Below are positions 1 through 7,401 of a stretch of DNA of 7,401 nt, one piece after another. The DNA lies in contig PRDJ01000008.1 of assembly GCA_003345555.1 (NCBI GenBank), positions 1 to 7,401 of the forward strand, read 5' to 3'. This DNA comes from Candidatus Thorarchaeota archaeon (GTDB lineage Archaea; Asgardarchaeota; Thorarchaeia; Thorarchaeales; Thorarchaeaceae). The notes beneath the pieces were generated by a model. It made no database searches. It saw only the letters and a list, made by a program, of their open reading frames with translations, and was not told where the DNA came from. How positions within the stretch are numbered: the stretch's first letter is position 1; the number at the start of each line of letters is the position of its first letter. The position numbers were made by a program, and so were the translations under genes.

Positions 1-301
1 GCGTGCCTTCGGCCGTGGTCAGGCTGTAGAATCCGGGCTTGGGTACTTCTCTTAGTCGTATTTTCCCGTCGTATAGCCAGATACCCTTCTTGCCTGTAGG
101 CACCAGAGAAACGGGACCGTATCTTCGGATCATCTTGCCTGTTCGTACGGGGACTCCACATGCGCGGCCGTTCGGCAATACGAAATACCGACTGCCCACT
201 GGTCCAGCGCCGCCACGCCTACCCGCCCACTCTCCTTCGGGCAGAGTCACACCTTGAATCAATAGACGGACCTTGAGTGTGAGCATGTCTTCCGCATTCA
301 T
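1..301 (-). CDS. N-terminal part (100 codons, continues off the left edge) of a probable radical SAM protein, MSMEG_0568-like
   Basis: Manual translation from ATG at 301 gives a stop-free frame to the window edge: MNAEDMLTLKVRLLIQGVTLPEGEWAGRRGGAGPVGSRYFVLPNGRACGVPVRTGKMIRRYGPVSLVPTGKKGIWLYDGKIRLREVPKPGFYSLTTAEGT. It lies 39 nt after the upstream stop, on the same strand, with a weak AGGA 5 nt before the ATG (alternative ATG at 286). RRGGAGP and PxPxFYxLTTxxG match my recollection of the MSMEG_0568 family N-terminus. The CxxxCxxC motif would lie outside the window, so the family call is less certain than the CDS call. Confidence 0.65.
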   Translation of the reverse strand, partial: MNAEDMLTLKVRLLIQGVTLPEGEWAGRRGGAGPVGSRYFVLPNGRACGVPVRTGKMIRRYGPVSLVPTGKKGIWLYDGKIRLREVPKPGFYSLTTAEGT

Positions 302-340
302 AGCGTTCCTGCACTCACAATCATTTGCCCTAATCTGTCT

Positions 341-1465
341 TCACATCTTGACCTTTGAGGTTGAGTCGAAGGCCGCCAAGACCATTTCTGGGAGGTCAAG
401 AACGATAAGCATCTTTCCTGCTCGAGAAGCCAGCATGTTCTTGCAGAAGGGACATGAGGTTACCAAGAACTTGGCTCCAACCTCCCTCGCCTGTGACACG
501 CGGGCATCGCCGATAGTGCTGGCTTGATCAGTGAATAGTGTCCTCATACCAGCACCATTGCCGCAGCACATGGCATTTTCCCTACTGCGGGCCATCTCGA
601 CCACTTTCGTGCCGGAGACTCTTTCAATGACTTTTCTCGGGGGGTCGTATATGCCACTGTGTCGGCCGAGGTGGCATGGGTCATGGTATGTGATAGGGCC
701 GCCGAAGTCAACTGCCCTCAGAGCATCCAAGTGCTTTTCGAGCAACTGACTAATGTGAAGTACTGGCTTCTTTAGTTCAATCCCGAGCTGGGGGTAATCC
801 TTGGTGAACGCTCTGAAGCATCCTGGACACGTCACAACTATCTGCTCACCTTCAGATTTGTTCAGGGTGTCTGCATTATGGCGGGCCTGCTCAATTCCTA
901 GGTTTCGAAAGCCTGTCCTGAAGAGTGGAGAACCGCAGCACCATTCGTCAGGGGTCACGGACACCTTGTACCCGAGGTGAGAAAGTATTGAAACGGTACT
1001 ACGAGCGATGCCGTTTTCATGATAAGCCGCCGTACAGCCTGTGAAGTAGAGGATCTTCTTGCCTTGGGTCTTTGTTGGTACAAACCACTTGTTGCGCTTT
1101 CCATGAGGCTCGGCGAAGGGATTATGATTGGTCTTTATTGCAGAGGATATCTTATCGAGACCTCGAGGATATCGACCTTCATTGACCAGCCTCATTCGTT
1201 CATTCTCGACCATTGTGGCTATGTCAACTTGTGGCAAGCACCATGTGAGACACTGAGAGCATTCGAGACACTGGTAGAGCACTTCAATTGCGCGCTCATC
1301 AAGAGCGCGTGTTCCTTTTGCATCCTGATACATTAGGAGCGCACGGCCATGCGGCGTGGGAGAATCGGATCGCCAGGCCAGAAAAGTCGGGCACATGTGC
1401 CTGCACATCTTAGGACAACCTGCACAAAGACGAAGCTGCTCGATGGCCTCCGAATCTTCCATCAC
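341..1465 (-). CDS. (Fe-S)-binding oxidoreductase subunit: two [4Fe-4S] motifs plus two CCG domains (GlpC/GlcF/HdrD superfamily)
   Basis: 374 aa. Contains CAGCPKMCRHMCP and CLECSQCLTWC; CCG domain 1 (YFTGC..WCCGSP..VTCPGC); CCG domain 2 (YHDPCHLGR..MCCGNG..TSCPFC). Start is GTG 1465 or ATG 1462, overlapping the upstream TGA (GTGATG). RBS GGGAGGA at 1471-1477. Confidence 0.9.
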   Translation of the reverse strand: MMEDSEAIEQLRLCAGCPKMCRHMCPTFLAWRSDSPTPHGRALLMYQDAKGTRALDERAIEVLYQCLECSQCLTWCLPQVDIATMVENERMRLVNEGRYPRGLDKISSAIKTNHNPFAEPHGKRNKWFVPTKTQGKKILYFTGCTAAYHENGIARSTVSILSHLGYKVSVTPDEWCCGSPLFRTGFRNLGIEQARHNADTLNKSEGEQIVVTCPGCFRAFTKDYPQLGIELKKPVLHISQLLEKHLDALRAVDFGGPITYHDPCHLGRHSGIYDPPRKVIERVSGTKVVEMARSRENAMCCGNGAGMRTLFTDQASTIGDARVSQAREVGAKFLVTSCPFCKNMLASRAGKMLIVLDLPEMVLAAFDSTSKVKM

Positions 1466-2889
1466 GTATGTCCTCCCATCCCGAGCTTACCAGGGTTCAT
1501 GATGCCGTTGGGGTCCAGAACTTCCTTGATTTTCTTCAAGACTTCGAAGCTAGACCCGAGTTCAGCCTCGGTGTAGGTGCTTCGAGTGGTTCCGACTCCG
1601 TGCTGATGGCTCATGGTGCCTCCTTCTCTCAAGCAAGCCGCTACCCCGTCATCCCAGATTTCGCGGTATGTGGCCCACGCGCTTTCGGCATCCGGCTGCG
1701 AAACGAAGAATATCATGTAGATGCTGCCGCCGTTGGGATACATGTGCGAGAAATGAGACATGACAGCAGCACCGTGGGCTTCCATAACCCGCTTCATTTC
1801 ATGATATACATTCTCAAGTCTGTCGTAGGTCGCAACGATATCGATCGTATCGCCCACAGAAAAGCCGCTGGTGGCGAATTTCGTAGGATAGTACATATCG
1901 TACCTGTGTTCCCACCAGTATTTTGAGGGCCCTTCCCCATAGTCCTTTGCTCCGTTCTCGATGCAAATCCTGGCAGAGATGCTCTCGTCTATGTCCACCT
2001 TCTCCGGCCTGCCATCGAATGCGAGCATTAGCATACAATTCCCTTCCTCAACCTCAAAGTGAGTGCTTACATGCAGCGCCGTGTCCTCGGCATCGTACAG
2101 GCGGACCACTGATGGGAATATGCCCTCTCTGAATATGGCCCGAATGGCCATCAGCCCGCTATGAACATCTGGGAAGCACATGCTTCTGAAGTGTCTTGAA
2201 GGTGGAAGGGGAAATAGACGAAGAGTCGCTTCCGTTATCACGCATAGCGTTCCTTCGGAGCCTATGAAAAGCTGCCTCAAATCCGGCCCAACAGAGTGGC
2301 GCGGGACGGCCTTGCATCTTACGACACTTCCATCCGCTAGAACGACTTCGAGTCCTAGTGTCAAGTCCTCGATTTTGCCGTAGAGAGATGACATAGAGCC
2401 GCCGGAACGAGTAGCGATGAAACCGCCGACGTTTGATGCTCTAAGGGAAGTGGGTGTATGACCGGTCGTGTAGCCGTGCCTATTGACTTCCTCTTCCAAG
2501 TCTATGCCTACAGTCCCAGCCTGCACGCGGACCAGCAGGGACTCACCATCGATGGCAAGAATCTTGTCCATGCGTTTCAGGTCAAGCTGAATTCCACCAT
2601 AGGTAGGTTGTGTTCCTCCACAGGTACCAGCACCCCCGCCAACAGGAACTACCGGCACTCTCAGATCGTTGGCGACCCTTAGGATCTTAGATACCTCCTC
2701 TGTCGACGATGGGTAGACAATCACATCTGCTAGCGGAAGGGTCTCGCCTGCCCTAATCTTGGCTTCGCTAAGCGGCCACGCGTCGTGGGCATTCAGGACT
2801 GCATCAGTCTCGTCAGTCGTGAAATGGTCCGGGCCCACGATAGCTTCAATCTGCTCCACTAACTTGGCCTTAGTTCTAGTATCCAACAA
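1462..2889 (-). CDS. FAD-binding oxidoreductase of the VAO/PCMH fold, alkyl-dihydroxyacetonephosphate synthase (AGPS/ADPS)-like
   Basis: 475 aa. FAD_binding_4 motifs: VIVYPSSTEEVSKIL, VPVGGG, GHTPTS..SNVGGFIATRSGG..SLYGKIEDL, GPDLRQLFIGSEGTLCVITEA. C-terminal motifs: VRLYDAEDT, SHFSHMYPNGGSIY, SHQHGVG, DPNGIMNPGKL. These resemble AGPS (RxYD, SHxY..xY, SHHHGVG) more than GlcD/D-lactate dehydrogenases (GEHG). TTG start with RBS GAGGTGA 7 nt upstream. Confidence 0.85.
   Translation of the reverse strand: MLDTRTKAKLVEQIEAIVGPDHFTTDETDAVLNAHDAWPLSEAKIRAGETLPLADVIVYPSSTEEVSKILRVANDLRVPVVPVGGGAGTCGGTQPTYGGIQLDLKRMDKILAIDGESLLVRVQAGTVGIDLEEEVNRHGYTTGHTPTSLRASNVGGFIATRSGGSMSSLYGKIEDLTLGLEVVLADGSVVRCKAVPRHSVGPDLRQLFIGSEGTLCVITEATLRLFPLPPSRHFRSMCFPDVHSGLMAIRAIFREGIFPSVVRLYDAEDTALHVSTHFEVEEGNCMLMLAFDGRPEKVDIDESISARICIENGAKDYGEGPSKYWWEHRYDMYYPTKFATSGFSVGDTIDIVATYDRLENVYHEMKRVMEAHGAAVMSHFSHMYPNGGSIYMIFFVSQPDAESAWATYREIWDDGVAACLREGGTMSHQHGVGTTRSTYTEAELGSSFEVLKKIKEVLDPNGIMNPGKLGMGGHT
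1471..1477 (-). promoter_or_regulatory. Shine-Dalgarno site for the second CCG gene (GGGAGGA)
   Basis: The minus strand reads GGGAGGA-catac-GTG-ATG. Confidence 0.7.
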
Positions 2890-2896
2890 TCACAGG

Positions 2897-2903
2897 TCAC
2901 CTC
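2897..2903 (-). promoter_or_regulatory. Shine-Dalgarno site for the AGPS-like gene (GAGGTGA)
   Basis: The minus strand reads GAGGTGA-cctgtga-TTG. The motif includes the glpC stop codon and lies 7 nt before TTG 2889. Confidence 0.75.
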
Positions 2904-4135
2904 TTTTGTGGGAGTCTGCGTGCGAAGAAGACTGTGAGATCCTCAACAACAGTTTGGCTGCCGGCGCGAAACAGATTGCTTTCAATCTGGGCGGTGCACA
3001 GCGGGCACGGCGTGACAACAGTGTCGGCCTCCGTAGAAGAAATTGCGGCAACGTTCTCTGTGACTACCGCATCAGCTACGTCTCTCGAATGATACCCTAC
3101 CATTCCTCCACCGCCACAGCAAGAGTCTGACATACCAGATTCCTCGATTGTGACACCGGGTATGAGGTTGAGAATGGCGCGAGCATGCTCCGCTATCTGT
3201 CGTGATGTATGCCGGATTATGTGGCATGGGTCATGGATTGTCACCTTTGCTGGAGTGAACCGGCCTCGGCCCTTAAACGGGCGAGAGACCTTGTTGAACC
3301 CAATCTCCTCAGCAAGGAACTCAACTAGATGGTAGACCGGTATTCCCCATCCATCACGCGCACTGATATCGCATAGATTCGAAGTGCAACCAGCACACGT
3401 CGTGACTATCTTCTTCACACCGAGGGATTTCACCTTGTCCTGAAGACGCCCCGCCAGCAATCGTGCGGTCTCATCGTCGCCTATCAGTTTTGAAGGAAGG
3501 CCGCAACAACTCATCTGATCCAGCAGAGTGTAATTGATTCCGAAATAGCTGAGAATGTACTTGGCTGCTTCCTTTACTTCTTGGGCGCGCTCCTCGGCTT
3601 GACATCCGGGATAGAACAACACATCTGCACCAGGCACAACACGGTCAGGAACAGAAGGCAGCCCCAAGGTCTCAAGTCGAACCTTGCGGCTCTCAGATTT
3701 CTCTTCCTGGTCAGCCCAAGGTTCGAAAGCGAGAGAGTGCTTCACGATTACGTCGTGTTCGTCAAGTAGGGCTTTTGGTACGAGGTCCGGTCTCTGTGCG
3801 AAGATTCTCGTGCGAATCATATTGACTACAGCAGGAATATTCACCTTTCTAGGGCAGACTTCTCGGCATGTGCCGCATCCAGTGCAAAGATACACCTTGT
3901 CACTGGTTGTCCAGAATTCGGGGGGAGAGCGACTCAGTTCAACTGCGATACTTCTCGGACCACTGAACCTCTCAACACCCACCGCTCTCACAACGGGGCA
4001 GTGACCAATGCACAGACCACAGTTGATGCAGCCCTCAACCGAACGGACAGCTTCGAGCTCGTCTCTCTTGAAGGGCTGAATCCGCTCGGCTTTCAGTGTC
4101 GCCTTGACAGCCTCGTAAGCTTGCTCGTCGCTCAA
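2897..4135 (-). CDS. glpC: Anaerobic glycerol-3-phosphate dehydrogenase subunit C-like Fe-S protein (2x[4Fe-4S] + 2 CCG domains)
   Basis: 412 aa. Contains CINCGLCIGHCP and CTGCGTCREVCP; CCG motifs FYPGC..SCCGLP..TTCAGC and IHDPCH..SCCGGGG..TPCPLC. It directly follows glpB, with a TTG start overlapping the glpB TGA (TTGA, 4132-4135). The glpC name rests on synteny plus domain architecture. Confidence 0.8.
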   Translation of the reverse strand: MSDEQAYEAVKATLKAERIQPFKRDELEAVRSVEGCINCGLCIGHCPVVRAVGVERFSGPRSIAVELSRSPPEFWTTSDKVYLCTGCGTCREVCPRKVNIPAVVNMIRTRIFAQRPDLVPKALLDEHDVIVKHSLAFEPWADQEEKSESRKVRLETLGLPSVPDRVVPGADVLFYPGCQAEERAQEVKEAAKYILSYFGINYTLLDQMSCCGLPSKLIGDDETARLLAGRLQDKVKSLGVKKIVTTCAGCTSNLCDISARDGWGIPVYHLVEFLAEEIGFNKVSRPFKGRGRFTPAKVTIHDPCHIIRHTSRQIAEHARAILNLIPGVTIEESGMSDSCCGGGGMVGYHSRDVADAVVTENVAAISSTEADTVVTPCPLCTAQIESNLFRAGSQTVVEDLTVFFARRLPQKR

Positions 4136-5505
4136 GGTAATGCCCCCTTGACATAATCTGCCGCATTTGCACCCGCAGCATAGCCGGTAGCGAGTGCTAC
4201 ACCGAGTCCACTTTTCTCTGCCGAGTAATTGTAGCGAGAGAGAATCGAGCCTGCGGCGAACACGTTGTCTGCTACAGGTTGGCCATCGGTGCCTGTCGGT
4301 CGAAACATGCTATCAAAAGCTACACCGACGCCAAAGAGAGAATGACCCTCGGGGCTCAGAGCCAAGATGTTGGTATAGCGTTGAGGCCTTGCTCCCGCAG
4401 TCTGGTATGACTCAACATCGACCACTGGCAATTTCACGAGTGTCTCAACGAAACCGCTTTCATCACCCTTGATGCCGCCTCCGATGAATTTACCAGAGGC
4501 GAGCACGACCGCAGCCGGGATTATGTTGAAGGTCCGTTGAGGGGTTTTCACAGCGACGCTATCGATGTGCCCTTCTTTCTTTTCAAATGAGACAGCCTCG
4601 TGACCGATGAGCAATCTGCCGCCGTCGGTGCTCAGCGCAGACTCCAGAGCATTCTGTAATCTGAGACCGGGAACTGAGGGTGGAAATGCCAGAAGCTCGA
4701 ATACTTTGGCACCCATCTTGTCTTCGAGCTCGAACTTGTTTGCCCTCGCTCGACGCAGACCCAAGACAGGAGGGAAGGCAATGAAGTCAGCTCCTGTACT
4801 TCTCACATGGTCTTTCAATGTCTTAGCCAGTTCAGCAAAGCCTTCCTCGCGATCCATATAGCGAGCAATATCAAACGAATAGATATTGTGAGGCTGCCCA
4901 AAAGGCAATACGTCCAATGTGCAGTTTGCCACTCTTCGGGGTCTGTTTTCTCCCGGTAGACGACTAGCTAAGAAGTTCTTGGCGGTAATCGATGAATTGC
5001 AGTCAGGGAAACCCCGAAAGCCAACAAAAAGAACGATGCTATCGTGCCAATCATCAGAACCTTCAACGAACATGGTTCCTTGGACCAATGATGTTGGCTT
5101 GGATGAGCCCAGCAATGTCACAGCCTGAATAGTACGTCCAAGGTCTCCAACCAATGCAGACGGCGAACCATTCAGCTTGCCCTTAATCCAGTCGACGGCC
5201 TCACTAACGCGCGCTACAACTCTTTCTGGATCCACAGGAAGACCTCCATCGGAATACCCCAGTACTGAATATGGGTGAAGAGGATAGATTTCCGACACCG
5301 CATTCAGGCCCTCAATCGCGTTCGCAAAAGGAACATTCGCACCGGGCAGGTAACTCATGATGTCTACAGCACCAGAGGATATTGCTGTCGCGCCTTGCCC
5401 CTTACGTAAGACGACAACCTTCAGGCCTGCTTCCGCACCAACCATTCCTGCAACAAGACCAGCCATTCCACCGCCAACGACGAGCAGGTCAGCCTTGATA
5501 TCCAT
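4132..5505 (-). CDS. glpB: Anaerobic glycerol-3-phosphate dehydrogenase subunit B (flavoprotein)
   Basis: 457 aa. N-terminal VVGGGMAGLVAG, GQGATAISSGAVD, FPPSVPGLRLQNAL, VLASGKFIGGGI, NVFAAGSIL and SGLGVALATG match GlpB motifs as I recall them (e.g. SSGSLDLL, PPSVLGIRL, LASGSFFSGGL). The ATG immediately follows the glpA TAG. RBS GAGGAGG at 5514-5520. Confidence 0.92.
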   Translation of the reverse strand: MDIKADLLVVGGGMAGLVAGMVGAEAGLKVVVLRKGQGATAISSGAVDIMSYLPGANVPFANAIEGLNAVSEIYPLHPYSVLGYSDGGLPVDPERVVARVSEAVDWIKGKLNGSPSALVGDLGRTIQAVTLLGSSKPTSLVQGTMFVEGSDDWHDSIVLFVGFRGFPDCNSSITAKNFLASRLPGENRPRRVANCTLDVLPFGQPHNIYSFDIARYMDREEGFAELAKTLKDHVRSTGADFIAFPPVLGLRRARANKFELEDKMGAKVFELLAFPPSVPGLRLQNALESALSTDGGRLLIGHEAVSFEKKEGHIDSVAVKTPQRTFNIIPAAVVLASGKFIGGGIKGDESGFVETLVKLPVVDVESYQTAGARPQRYTNILALSPEGHSLFGVGVAFDSMFRPTGTDGQPVADNVFAAGSILSRYNYSAEKSGLGVALATGYAAGANAADYVKGALP

Positions 5506-7158
5506 CTAGCTCGCCTCCTCCCAAGGCTTGGGCTCGTAATGCGCGTCGGAGCGGTCTAGGTTTGCCACGCAGGCATAGATTCCCTGTACAACTTCCTCCT
5601 GACTGAGCTGCTCTCCTCTCATCGGCGGTCTCTTGCCCTTCCATCGCTCAGATAGGTAATCCAGTATTTCGAGCTGGAATTGCTCTCCGGAGAGTCCGAG
5701 TTCGTCTGCCAATATGCCCGCGGCCTTGAATGTGCATAGTGTGCCTTGACAGGGTCCCGTACCTAATCTGACACGCCGCCTGAGGTCGTTCAATGTCTGG
5801 GGGAATTCCTCACGTATTGCATACCTAATCTCCGCCTCGATTACTGGCTCGCAAGCGCATATAGTTGAAAGCCATTCTGGATGCTCGCGAGTGAGTTCAA
5901 GCACTTTGCCAAGCTCGGTTCCTCTTCTCGCCCTCAGTCTCTCAACTGCGTGCCGAGAGATATTGTACTGCGCAGCCAAGGCAAGTACATCAACACTTGC
6001 TTCATTGCCAGGCAAAGGCTCGATATGGGTTGTGCACTTAATGTCCTTGCCGAGCTTCTTGCACACCATGTCTGTGACACTCTCAGCCATGTGGCGGCAC
6101 ATGACAAGCTTCCCGCCGGTGAAGCTCAGTAGTCCATCAATGCCGTCCGGTGCGTGGTCCACCACCTGATAGCCCCGAGTGACCTTCCCTTCTGGTATCT
6201 TCCACTGCGCTACTAGAGGGCGTGCACCTTCCATGGTTCTGATTATCCGAGCTTGCCTTATCGATGGTACTACCCATTCGATGCTCTTTAGCAGGTACTC
6301 TATCTCATCGTACGACGCAACTAGAGTATCTGGGTCTTCCCAGCTATCTAGCGCAGTTGTGCCTAACAAAGCGGTGTTCTCGTGCGGAAAGAGGTATATC
6401 ATTCGCCCGTCAACAGCCTTCGCAATTATACCAACATTCACGACCCGTCTGTCCAATATCACGTGTGCGCCCTTGTTCAGACGGATTTCGAGACGAGCAT
6501 TCAGTAGACCTGCAATCTTGTCCGCCCAAGGACCCCCTGCGTTCACAACTACCTTTGCTGTGACCAACTCCTTCTGAGCGGTCAACCGGTTGAAGAAGGC
6601 GACTTCAATCATGTTGCCTGAAGTTTTCTTCATTTCGGTGACTTCACAGTAGGTGCGGATGTCTGCGCCTCGCCTACGCGCATCAAGAGCCTGCAGGATG
6701 CATAGACGGAATGGATCAATGAAGTACTCCTCGAAGTACATCGAAGCAATCAGCTCGGGGTTTATCTTCGGTTCAATCTTCAGTGAATCCTCCGGTGTGA
6801 GAAACAAAACAGGGGGGACATCGCGGCTAGCTGCACGCTTGGAATACTCTTCAGCAAAGTTCCCTCCGCTTGATAGGTCACTCATTTCCAGCATCGGAGT
6901 GAGAATGGGATTCTTCATTATGATGTTCTGGGCTATGCGTTTGAAATAGACTACTTCCTGAGAGCACATGTCGACAATGTCTGGTTCTTCCATGTACTTC
7001 AGACCAGACGATATCATGCCGGCACAGGTTCCCACTGTTGCAGATGCTATGTCGTCTCGTTCCAGCATTAGGGTCTTCAGGCCACGCATAGCGCAATCAC
7101 GGGCGACAGCAGTCCCGGTGCTGCCACCGCCAATGATAATCACATCATACTCATTCAT
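5506..7158 (-). CDS. glpA: Anaerobic glycerol-3-phosphate dehydrogenase subunit A-like FAD enzyme with C-terminal BFD-like [2Fe-2S] domain; divergent active-site motifs
   Basis: About 550 aa from ATG 7158 (MNEYDVIIIGGGSTG). Contains ERDDIA, VVNAGGPWA, KGAHV, GTT, GARPL, TRGY..DH, GGKL and C-terminal CACE..RRRVRLGTGPCQGTLC. The ORF track start (TTG 7191) adds 11 residues before the Rossmann motif and is less likely. Confidence 0.92.
   Translation of the reverse strand: MNEYDVIIIGGGSTGTAVARDCAMRGLKTLMLERDDIASATVGTCAGMISSGLKYMEEPDIVDMCSQEVVYFKRIAQNIIMKNPILTPMLEMSDLSSGGNFAEEYSKRAASRDVPPVLFLTPEDSLKIEPKINPELIASMYFEEYFIDPFRLCILQALDARRRGADIRTYCEVTEMKKTSGNMIEVAFFNRLTAQKELVTAKVVVNAGGPWADKIAGLLNARLEIRLNKGAHVILDRRVVNVGIIAKAVDGRMIYLFPHENTALLGTTALDSWEDPDTLVASYDEIEYLLKSIEWVVPSIRQARIIRTMEGARPLVAQWKIPEGKVTRGYQVVDHAPDGIDGLLSFTGGKLVMCRHMAESVTDMVCKKLGKDIKCTTHIEPLPGNEASVDVLALAAQYNISRHAVERLRARRGTELGKVLELTREHPEWLSTICACEPVIEAEIRYAIREEFPQTLNDLRRRVRLGTGPCQGTLCTFKAAGILADELGLSGEQFQLEILDYLSERWKGKRPPMRGEQLSQEEVVQGIYACVANLDRSDAHYEPKPWEEAS
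5514..5520 (-). promoter_or_regulatory. Shine-Dalgarno site for glpB (GAGGAGG)
   Basis: The minus strand reads GAGGAGG-cgagc-TAG-ATG, placing the motif 8 nt before the glpB ATG, inside the last codons of glpA. Confidence 0.75.
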
Positions 7159-7269
7159 CGATGGTCCGAGCTCCGGTACAGTTCCCGGCAAGGAAACCGC
7201 GTGTTCATGGGTTCAGCACTTCGACAGTAGTAGCTGATTCATGTCGCAAATAGAAGTGTTTCGGATTAT

Positions 7270-7346
7270 GGTATATTCAGACGTGGCACATTAAAACAAG
7301 ACAGACAAATCGTGGCAACCGCTCACGTCCACGATAGATTAAAAGG
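7270..7346. promoter_or_regulatory. Probable promoter/operator region: two ATTAAAA (TTTTAAT) boxes flanking a 7-bp inverted repeat
   Basis: No convincing ORF upstream of glpA. ATTAAAA occurs at 7290-7296 and 7338-7344. ATCGTGG (7309-7315) and CCACGAT (7329-7335) form a perfect inverted repeat with a 13-nt spacer. The functional assignment is inference. Confidence 0.4.
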
Positions 7347-7401
7347 TCTGCAACCGCCAAGTACGATTCGAGAGAGCTATTCTTGGCTTTTGAGGGTGAC
7401 T

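Follow-up and report, generated by a model that had tools for sequence, protein, structure and literature searches.

What reaction does an archaeal relative of the ether-lipid flavoenzyme alkyl-dihydroxyacetone phosphate synthase (ADPS or AGPS) carry out when it is encoded in one operon with a GlpABC-type dehydrogenase? This question is raised by 7,401 nucleotides (nt) of DNA from Candidatus Thorarchaeota archaeon (assembly GCA_003345555.1, contig PRDJ01000008.1, positions 1 to 7,401), the whole of which we call the window. One of its genes encodes a flavoprotein that belongs to a large prokaryotic AGPS-like family, and the gene directly downstream encodes an iron-sulphur (Fe-S) protein with two CCG domains, here called CCG2. 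Our analysis indicates that the flavoprotein is most likely a redox enzyme for a small phosphorylated C3-C5 compound and not an ether-lipid synthase. More specifically, and with about even confidence, we regard it as the subunit responsible for catalysis in an AGPS-like flavin/Fe-S oxidoreductase, which acts on a phosphate resembling dihydroxyacetone phosphate (DHAP) in a kinase/dehydrogenase pathway. The two genes and the relevant parts of the flavoprotein, which binds flavin adenine dinucleotide (FAD), are as follows (lengths in amino acids, aa).

1462-2889, minus strand: AGPS-like FAD subunit, 475 aa, TTG start; Pfam FAD_binding_4 (2.5e-40) and FAD-oxidase_C (3.3e-37)
2314-2727, minus strand: FAD_binding_4 domain, flavoprotein residues 55-192 (Pfam)
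1483-2205, minus strand: FAD-oxidase_C (cap/substrate) domain, flavoprotein residues 229-469 (Pfam)
2101-2103, minus strand: codon of Arg263, by alignment ADPS Arg352 (Dictyostelium) or Arg419 (guinea pig)
1717-1719, minus strand: codon of Tyr391, by alignment the catalytic ADPS Tyr508 (Dictyostelium) or Tyr578 (guinea pig)
1600-1608, minus strand: His428-Gln429-His430, the ADPS HHH loop, with Gln429 at the position of the Glu metal ligand of the GlcD type
341-1465, minus strand: CCG2, 374 aa, 2x[4Fe-4S] motifs and two CCG domains (Pfam CCG 2.2e-37, Fer4_8)

Active site and family of the flavoprotein

A preliminary description of this DNA had recognised three motifs in the flavoprotein and matched them to the Arg, Tyr and HHH residues of ADPS. 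Translation of the open reading frame (ORF) at 1462-2889 places VRLYD at residues 262-266 (RLYD at 2092-2103), ends GGSIY on Tyr391 (1717-1719) and puts SHQHGVG at residues 427-433 (1591-1611), as described. In HMMER alignments to the Dictyostelium (2uuu) and guinea-pig (4bby) enzymes, Arg263 pairs with the Arg in RVYD/RLMD, Tyr391 with the Tyr in CLYF/CIYF, and HQH with HHH; the outer two His of the ADPS loop are retained and the middle one is Gln. These alignments bear out the proposed match, as does conservation within the family: among 69 aligned members (mean column identity 39%), Arg263 and His382 show no variation, and at least 90% keep Tyr391, His428 and His430. Judged from its sequence, the active site is thus of the AGPS type, comprising Arg263, Tyr391, His428/His430 and His382.

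Searches for sequence and for fold lead to the same relatives. The best sequence match in the PDB is Dictyostelium ADPS (2uuu; 9.2e-62, 213 bits, HMMER), followed by guinea-pig ADPS (4bby; 2.5e-54), the putative oxidoreductase 3pm9 (1e-46) and then LctD and LDHD. An AlphaFold2 model of the flavoprotein (pLDDT 94) finds its best fold match in AGPS (5ae3/4bby), with a Foldseek template modelling (TM) score of 0.90 normalised on the query and 0.74-0.80 normalised on the target, at 25-28% identity in the fold alignments. A homologue search among 1.84 billion cluster representatives returned 2,290 matches at E<=1e-30, and nearly all of the best 150 carry RLYD, SHxY...Y and SHHHG[IV]G. The flavoprotein itself has the RLYD, SHxY...Y and SH[HQ]HG[IV]G signatures of the prokaryotic AGPS-like family, which we found in more than 10 phyla of bacteria and archaea. 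Its close homologues, 71-89% identical, are named Thorarchaeota or Promethearchaeota.

The flavoprotein had also been set apart from GlcD and D-lactate dehydrogenases, which were said to have GEHG instead of its His loop. Indeed, the GlcD-type relative P0243 reads SGEHGIG and HAGDGNFH where the flavoprotein reads SHQHGVG and SHMYPNGGS. Compared with this relative, one of the three metal-ligand positions is kept (His382), the second His is replaced by Ser389 and the Glu of GEHG by Gln429, and the GlcD type has Glu where the flavoprotein has Arg263. The His-His-Glu set (HxGDGNxH, GEHG) binds the metal in LDHD and D2HGDH structures. In a FastTree tree of 144 sequences with GlcD-type proteins as outgroup, the AGPS-like proteins, the flavoprotein included, stand apart from the outgroup with a support of 94; eukaryotic and Myxococcus xanthus AGPS are absent from this tree, and the distance to ADPS was judged by the PDB searches. 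Position in the tree, replacement of two of the three metal ligands, and best sequence and fold matches to ADPS all agree with the view that the protein is AGPS-like rather than GlcD- or Dld-like. A further expectation, that it would be mis-annotated as glycolate oxidase or lactate dehydrogenase, proved wrong: such proteins are labelled alkyl-DHAP synthase by JGI and FAD-binding oxidoreductase by NCBI.

Within the Asgard phylum, 114 of 201 sampled genomes have a match to the flavoprotein at E<=1e-80, including 38 of the 43 genomes of the window's own family. The tree separates two Asgard clades, one of Thor-type and allied families (support 98) and another in which Promethearchaeota families are joined with Thermoplasmatota. 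HQH occurs in all 121 close homologues (Thor clade) and in the family f12, and HHH in all other Asgard families and in the bacterial loci; the His-to-Gln change is a clade trait of two Asgard families. We also observed single in-frame stops in otherwise intact orthologues, namely TGA in GlpA of two genomes (G075, G164) and TAG, TAA or TGA in the flavoprotein of three others (G012, G017, G056). These stops could reflect recoding, selenocysteine or sequencing errors.

The CCG partner, the operon and its relatives

The cysteines of CCG2 follow the pattern conserved in GlpC/GlcF/HdrD-type proteins. A predicted complex of the flavoprotein with CCG2 scores 0.89, compared with 0.00 for the best of three controls; 58 of 80 solved complexes and 2 of 110 mismatched pairs attain this level, counts that apply only approximately here since we used our own alignments. 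The prediction runs agree in at least 93% of contacts, with a pLDDT of at least 91 for the partners. In the predicted interface, CCG2 residues 9-78, the [4Fe-4S], ferredoxin-like part, lie on the FAD domain of the flavoprotein, and CCG2 also touches the 330-340 loop, the loop that carries Arg447 in ADPS. On the flavoprotein side, the predicted contacts fall at residues 24-48, 85-89, 103-108, 127-133, 148-151 and 330-340. To our knowledge, no complex of the flavoprotein/CCG2 kind has been solved. The prediction supports binding between the two proteins, and it may have passed through likeness to a solved complex.

The pairing is also visible in gene order. In 20 Asgard loci from 13 families, the CCG gene lies directly downstream of the flavoprotein gene in 19 and within 3 kb in the remaining one; an FGGY kinase gene is adjacent in 16 and GlpABC in nine. 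For a wider view we examined 80 bacterial and archaeal loci from GTDB species genomes (Binatia, Acidimicrobiia, Myxococcota, Mycobacterium, Streptomyces, Thermoplasmatota, Promethearchaeota, Vulcanisaeta and others). The AGPS-like gene adjoins a GlpD/GlpA-type gene in 52 of them, across many phyla, an FGGY kinase gene in 40 and a CCG gene in 19. CCG partners were found in archaeal loci (Asgard, Thermoplasmatota), at one Dehalococcoidales locus, in Bacillota fusion proteins and with Myxococcota forms, and they are missing from most other bacterial loci, for example in Acidimicrobiia, Binatia, Mycobacterium and Streptomyces. The five-gene set of the window recurs, reordered, in one bacterium (L065). 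Furthermore, family members occur in several architectures:

Compact, about 475 aa: the flavoprotein itself
About 520 aa, carrying an insert
800-1000 aa, an extra FAD_binding_4 domain, CCG gene next downstream: Myxococcota type
Fusion with Fer4 and CCG: P0146, P0329, P0335, P0368
Fusion with DAO/DAO_C domains of the G3P (glycerol-3-phosphate) dehydrogenase type: P0351, P0352, P0356, P0358, P0370
Fusion with an FGGY kinase: P0364, P0374
Fusion with a PfkB kinase: P0222
Fusion with a HAD phosphatase: P0208

The Myxococcota-type form with its CCG gene has the GlcD-GlcE-GlcF layout of a true dehydrogenase. The PfkB fusion adjoins a DeoC-type aldolase and a sugar transporter, a neighbourhood as expected for a step from polyol phosphate to ketose phosphate. 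At two loci, a GlpD-type and an AGPS-like protein are joined in single frames (L070:5171-8383, 1070 aa; L105:5258-8428, 1056 aa). Both come from metagenome-assembled genomes based on long reads, in which an assembly error is possible, yet independent database proteins (P0351, P0356, P0370) also combine DAO with FAD_binding_4.

All six ORFs of the window lie on the minus strand. Besides the two genes listed above, these are:

5506-7191, minus strand: GlpA-like FAD/[2Fe-2S] dehydrogenase, 561 aa; DAO, DAO_C and Fer2_BFD; TIGR03377 417 bits, below the cut-off of 552.8
4132-5505, minus strand: GlpB, 457 aa; TIGR03378 202 bits, passing the cut-off of 174
2897-4135, minus strand: GlpC-like Fe-S/CCG subunit, 412 aa, by domain and family models
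2-301, minus strand: radical SAM gene of the MSMEG_0568 family, N-terminal part, cut by the contig end; TIGR04043 match

In the order of transcription, the GlpA-like gene abuts glpB without a gap, glpB overlaps the GlpC-like gene by 4 nt, a 7-nt gap leads to the flavoprotein gene, the latter overlaps the CCG2 gene by 4 nt, and 39 nt separate CCG2 from the radical SAM gene. The GlpA-like protein (5506-7191) also misses a second GlpA equivalog model (372 bits, cut-off 425). In a near-identical genome of the window's genus (L054, G152), glpA and the CCG gene each match as two adjoining pieces, which suggests assembly frameshifts. The window is contig 8 of a genome of 2.28 Mb that is 93% complete. 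Public sequencing runs with a large share of its DNA are wetland metagenomes from two studies, and no RNA runs were among the matching runs listed.

Relatives with longer contigs extend the operon at both ends. Upstream of glpA, Asgard relatives encode an FGGY kinase (L009:1759-3213; orthologues at L010, L040-L042, L052-L054 and L056), whose best models are LsrK and XylB. We considered GlpK for this kinase and rejected it (TIGR01311 148 bits, cut-off 590); nor does the window's genome encode any FGGY kinase above the GlpK cut-off, and bacterial modules have a GlpK-related kinase instead. The operon is not a plain glycerol operon. On the downstream side, the Fe-S gene of Thor-type operons is followed by the MSMEG_0568-family radical SAM gene and then by a GNAT acetyltransferase gene (window 2-301; L009:10551-13991; L052, L053, L054). 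The full-length radical SAM orthologue at L009 scores 280 bits with TIGR04043, just below the cut-off of 303.7; bacterial genes of this family are reported from a different cluster. An aldehyde dehydrogenase of 555 aa is encoded still further downstream in three of four Thor-type relatives, right after the GNAT gene in L009 and L053 and about 1.5 kb off in L054, and was not seen in L052.

The flavoprotein and the GlpABC genes are not strictly tied to each other. In family f12, the flavoprotein is present in 15 of 19 genomes and GlpA in two of 19, one genome (G007) has kinase, flavoprotein and CCG genes and no GlpA match, and GlpA-like genes also occur without the flavoprotein. At another locus (L048:3664-6860, G112), genes for a DAO+BFD flavoprotein, a Pyr_redox_2 protein and a 120-aa ORF lie on the opposite strand beside the kinase-flavoprotein-CCG genes. 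This set may correspond to the G3P dehydrogenase set of the Thermococcus type, in which case the AGPS-like pair would accompany two kinds of G3P dehydrogenase.

Which reaction?

In the mechanism that we favour, the FAD subunit (1462-2889) and CCG2 (341-1465) would form a two-subunit oxidoreductase. The AGPS-type residues Arg263, Tyr391, His428/His430 and His382 suggest a site built for a DHAP-like group, in which a small compound ending in C(=O or OH)-CH2-O-phosphate may be bound and deprotonated. Both the putative site and the operon context point to such a compound, which would be supplied by the co-transcribed GlpABC-type dehydrogenase and, in relatives with longer contigs, by an FGGY kinase encoded upstream; it may be DHAP, a glycerol phosphate, or else a polyol or ketose phosphate of four or five carbons. 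The preliminary description had likewise proposed a DHAP-like phosphorylated substrate, and the conserved neighbours of the G3P-dehydrogenase type and the FGGY kinases fit this proposal. The flavin would take two electrons and pass them to the ferredoxin-like [4Fe-4S] domain, which is predicted to sit on the FAD domain, from there to the CCG clusters and finally to an acceptor. We infer net redox catalysis, the class of substrate and this direction of electron flow from several lines of evidence: the AGPS-type residues are conserved while the GlcD-type metal site is lost, the CCG gene is linked in Asgard loci, Fer4/CCG fusions exist, the predicted complex scores well, and GlpD/GlpA and FGGY kinase genes are linked or fused to the family. 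GlpABC and the AGPS-like/CCG unit are probably not redundant because both co-occur.

Several points weigh against an oxidoreductase of this kind. We know of no member of the AGPS-like family with an enzyme assay. The conserved Tyr/His/Arg set is the same as the one that AGPS uses for a non-redox reaction, and this reading gives no reason why GlpABC should share its operon with a second flavin/Fe-S dehydrogenase. In P. aeruginosa, deletion of the PA3026 operon gave no growth phenotype on glycerol (PMC8151288). About 61 of the 80 loci, most of them bacterial, lack a neighbouring CCG gene, which shows that not every family member has the Fe-S partner, and the complete Thor genome CP070658 retains just a CCG remnant of about 109 codons after the flavoprotein gene (L010:9431-9757). 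Moreover, the kinase is not GlpK and GlpA stays below the equivalog cut-offs. A triose-phosphate isomerase gene and a gene with Pfam FBPase_3 lie close by at the CP070658 locus (L010).

AGPS is a textbook flavoenzyme without net redox change, and the flavoprotein could keep this type of chemistry for a small DHAP derivative, which would be enolised, form an adduct with flavin N5 and have its C1 substituent exchanged or eliminated; the Fe-S/CCG partner would then only keep or restore oxidised flavin in a strongly reducing anaerobic cytoplasm. The family-wide conservation of the AGPS Arg, Tyr and outer two His is in line with such a role, ADPS requires oxidised FAD for a reaction without net redox change (PMC3509576), and the occurrence of CCG partners in archaeal loci, at the Dehalococcoidales locus and in Bacillota fusions, and their lack in most other bacterial loci, may fit as well. 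However, the translationally coupled CCG partner argues against the non-redox AGPS reaction, the Myxococcota forms have CCG partners in a GlcDEF-like layout, and stable Fer4/CCG fusions suggest that electrons are transferred stoichiometrically. The neighbourhood encodes no candidate leaving group or nucleophile, and we are aware of no precedent for an Fe-S re-oxidiser of this kind; we consider this explanation unlikely. Improbable as well, and somewhat more so, is a GlcD/Dld-type 2-hydroxyacid dehydrogenase with a GlcF-like Fe-S subunit, for instance for D-lactate formed from DHAP via methylglyoxal. D-lactate is a known by-product of triose-phosphate overflow, the best NCBIfam model of the flavoprotein is GlcD (TIGR00387, 226.6 bits), its fold matches mouse LDHD with a TM score of 0.86, and the CCG Fe-S partner (GlcF-type) is a feature of the GlcD system, such pairing being typical of GlcDEF. 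The TIGR00387 score is nevertheless far below the cut-off of 567.9, as is that of NF008408 (138, cut-off 897), Ser389 and Gln429 replace two of three metal ligands, Arg263 stands where the GlcD type has Glu, the protein falls outside the GlcD-type outgroup, and the window's genome holds further FAD-oxidase paralogues.

Finally, a true alkyl-DHAP synthase could use DHAP from the local GlpABC reaction to build precursors of ether lipids, or cleave them in reverse, and would bring a bacterial/eukaryotic-type ether-lipid route to an Asgard archaeon. Its nearest solved relative is ADPS, the JGI/KEGG-style annotation carries this name, DHAP is the expected product of the neighbouring GlpABC-type dehydrogenase if G3P is its substrate, and a matching in-silico proposal has been published for PA3026 (PMC8151288). 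However, the alignments start at chain residue 93 of 2uuu and 178 of 4bby, and the first ~90 or ~175 ADPS residues are without counterpart in the flavoprotein; the ADPS-specific domain with its gate-keeping helix, which closes the C16 lipid channel (PMC3509576), therefore has no counterpart either. The ~23-residue ADPS insert after the Arg is absent in both alignments, and Thr336, adjacent to Lys337, aligns in both with Dictyostelium Arg447, a residue important for catalysis (PMC3509576). In the 93% complete genome, GNPAT-type acyltransferases (PF01553) were not found and FAR-type PF07993 gave just weak matches (30-43 bits, open frames of 329-346 aa). The score of 213 bits to 2uuu equals those of four other, unrelated prokaryotic subclades (190-218 bits) and does not amount to orthology-level similarity to AGPS proper; M. 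xanthus and human AGPS share ~42% identity (PMC9131029). An alkyl-DHAP reaction would also leave the Fe-S partner without a role, and a survey reported no evidence of a plasmalogen biosynthesis pathway in Archaea and an AGPS phylogeny that could not be resolved (PMC13012113). Our literature search found no published link of AGPS homologues to Asgard archaea or glp operons. We conclude that the flavoprotein is not the ether-lipid enzyme AGPS, and give very little credence to a synthase of this type. The idea of a different substrate, raised in the preliminary description from the His-to-Gln change and the size of the lipid tunnel in so compact a protein, fits the loss of the ADPS N-terminal domain, insert and second Arg, whereas the His-to-Gln change, as a trait of two Asgard families, is in itself no evidence for a new substrate.

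Two further candidates were set aside. A role of the pair in making sn-glycerol-1-phosphate for archaeal lipids from G3P was downgraded, as the genome has an EgsA-like gene (below its cut-off) and the module is common in bacteria. Simple replacement of GlpABC as G3P dehydrogenase, an idea that draws on G007 and on the f12 counts, leaves the co-occurrence and the GlpD-type fusions unexplained.

AGPS thus has a large sister family with links, and sometimes fusions, to G3P-type dehydrogenases, sugar kinases and proteins of Fe-S electron transfer. One solved member would fill a gap in glycerol- or polyol-phosphate metabolism and show the chemistry from which AGPS evolved. It would also decide on the use of Asgard "alkyl-DHAP synthase" labels in arguments about archaeal and eukaryotic membrane lipids, which on present evidence these labels should not serve. 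Should the AGPS-like/CCG pair form or cleave ether bonds on DHAP supplied by GlpABC, which we hold to be highly improbable, Thor-type Asgard archaea would gain a route to, or a way of feeding on, glycerol-3-phosphate alkyl ether lipids of the bacterial/eukaryotic kind, with direct bearing on the lipid divide at the origin of eukaryotes.

Comparison with known systems

With ADPS/AGPS (EC 2.5.1.26; 2UUU, 4BBY), the flavoprotein shares the VAO/PCMH two-domain fold, the RxYD Arg, the catalytic Tyr and both outer His of HHH. It differs in lacking the N-terminal gating domain and the post-Arg insert, in having Thr for Arg447 and Gln as the middle His, and in being encoded with an Fe-S partner, while GNPAT/FAR partners were not found in the genome. 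GlcDEF and D-lactate dehydrogenases (GlcD/LDHD) have the same fold (TM 0.86), and in GlcDEF a FAD subunit likewise passes electrons to a 2x[4Fe-4S]+CCG partner protein; some AGPS-like relatives even have a GlcE-like extra domain. In contrast to these enzymes, the His/His/Glu metal triad of the flavoprotein is reduced to one His, and the AGPS-type Arg and Tyr are present. GlpABC, encoded in the same operon, is also a flavoprotein with a CCG Fe-S subunit that acts on a phosphorylated C3 compound, but its flavoprotein fold is unrelated, of the DAO family there and of the VAO family here.

A parallel in gene content is PA3026 of P. aeruginosa, a FAD-binding oxidoreductase that we compared by its published description. 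It sits with a GlpD homologue and a carbohydrate kinase (PMC8151288), a gene set that our bacterial loci share, in the GliR-activated operon PA3026-PA3025-PA3024(-PA3023) (PMC8151288). In silico, this operon was proposed to lead from glycerol to alkylglycerone phosphate, with PA3026 predicted to convert acyl- to alkylglycerone phosphate (PMC8151288). The bacterial module of this type combines a GlpD-type dehydrogenase with a GlpK-related kinase, usually lacks an Fe-S partner and carries HHH, whereas the archaeal module has GlpABC, an LsrK/XylB-like kinase and an obligate-looking CCG partner, with HQH in the Thor flavoprotein.

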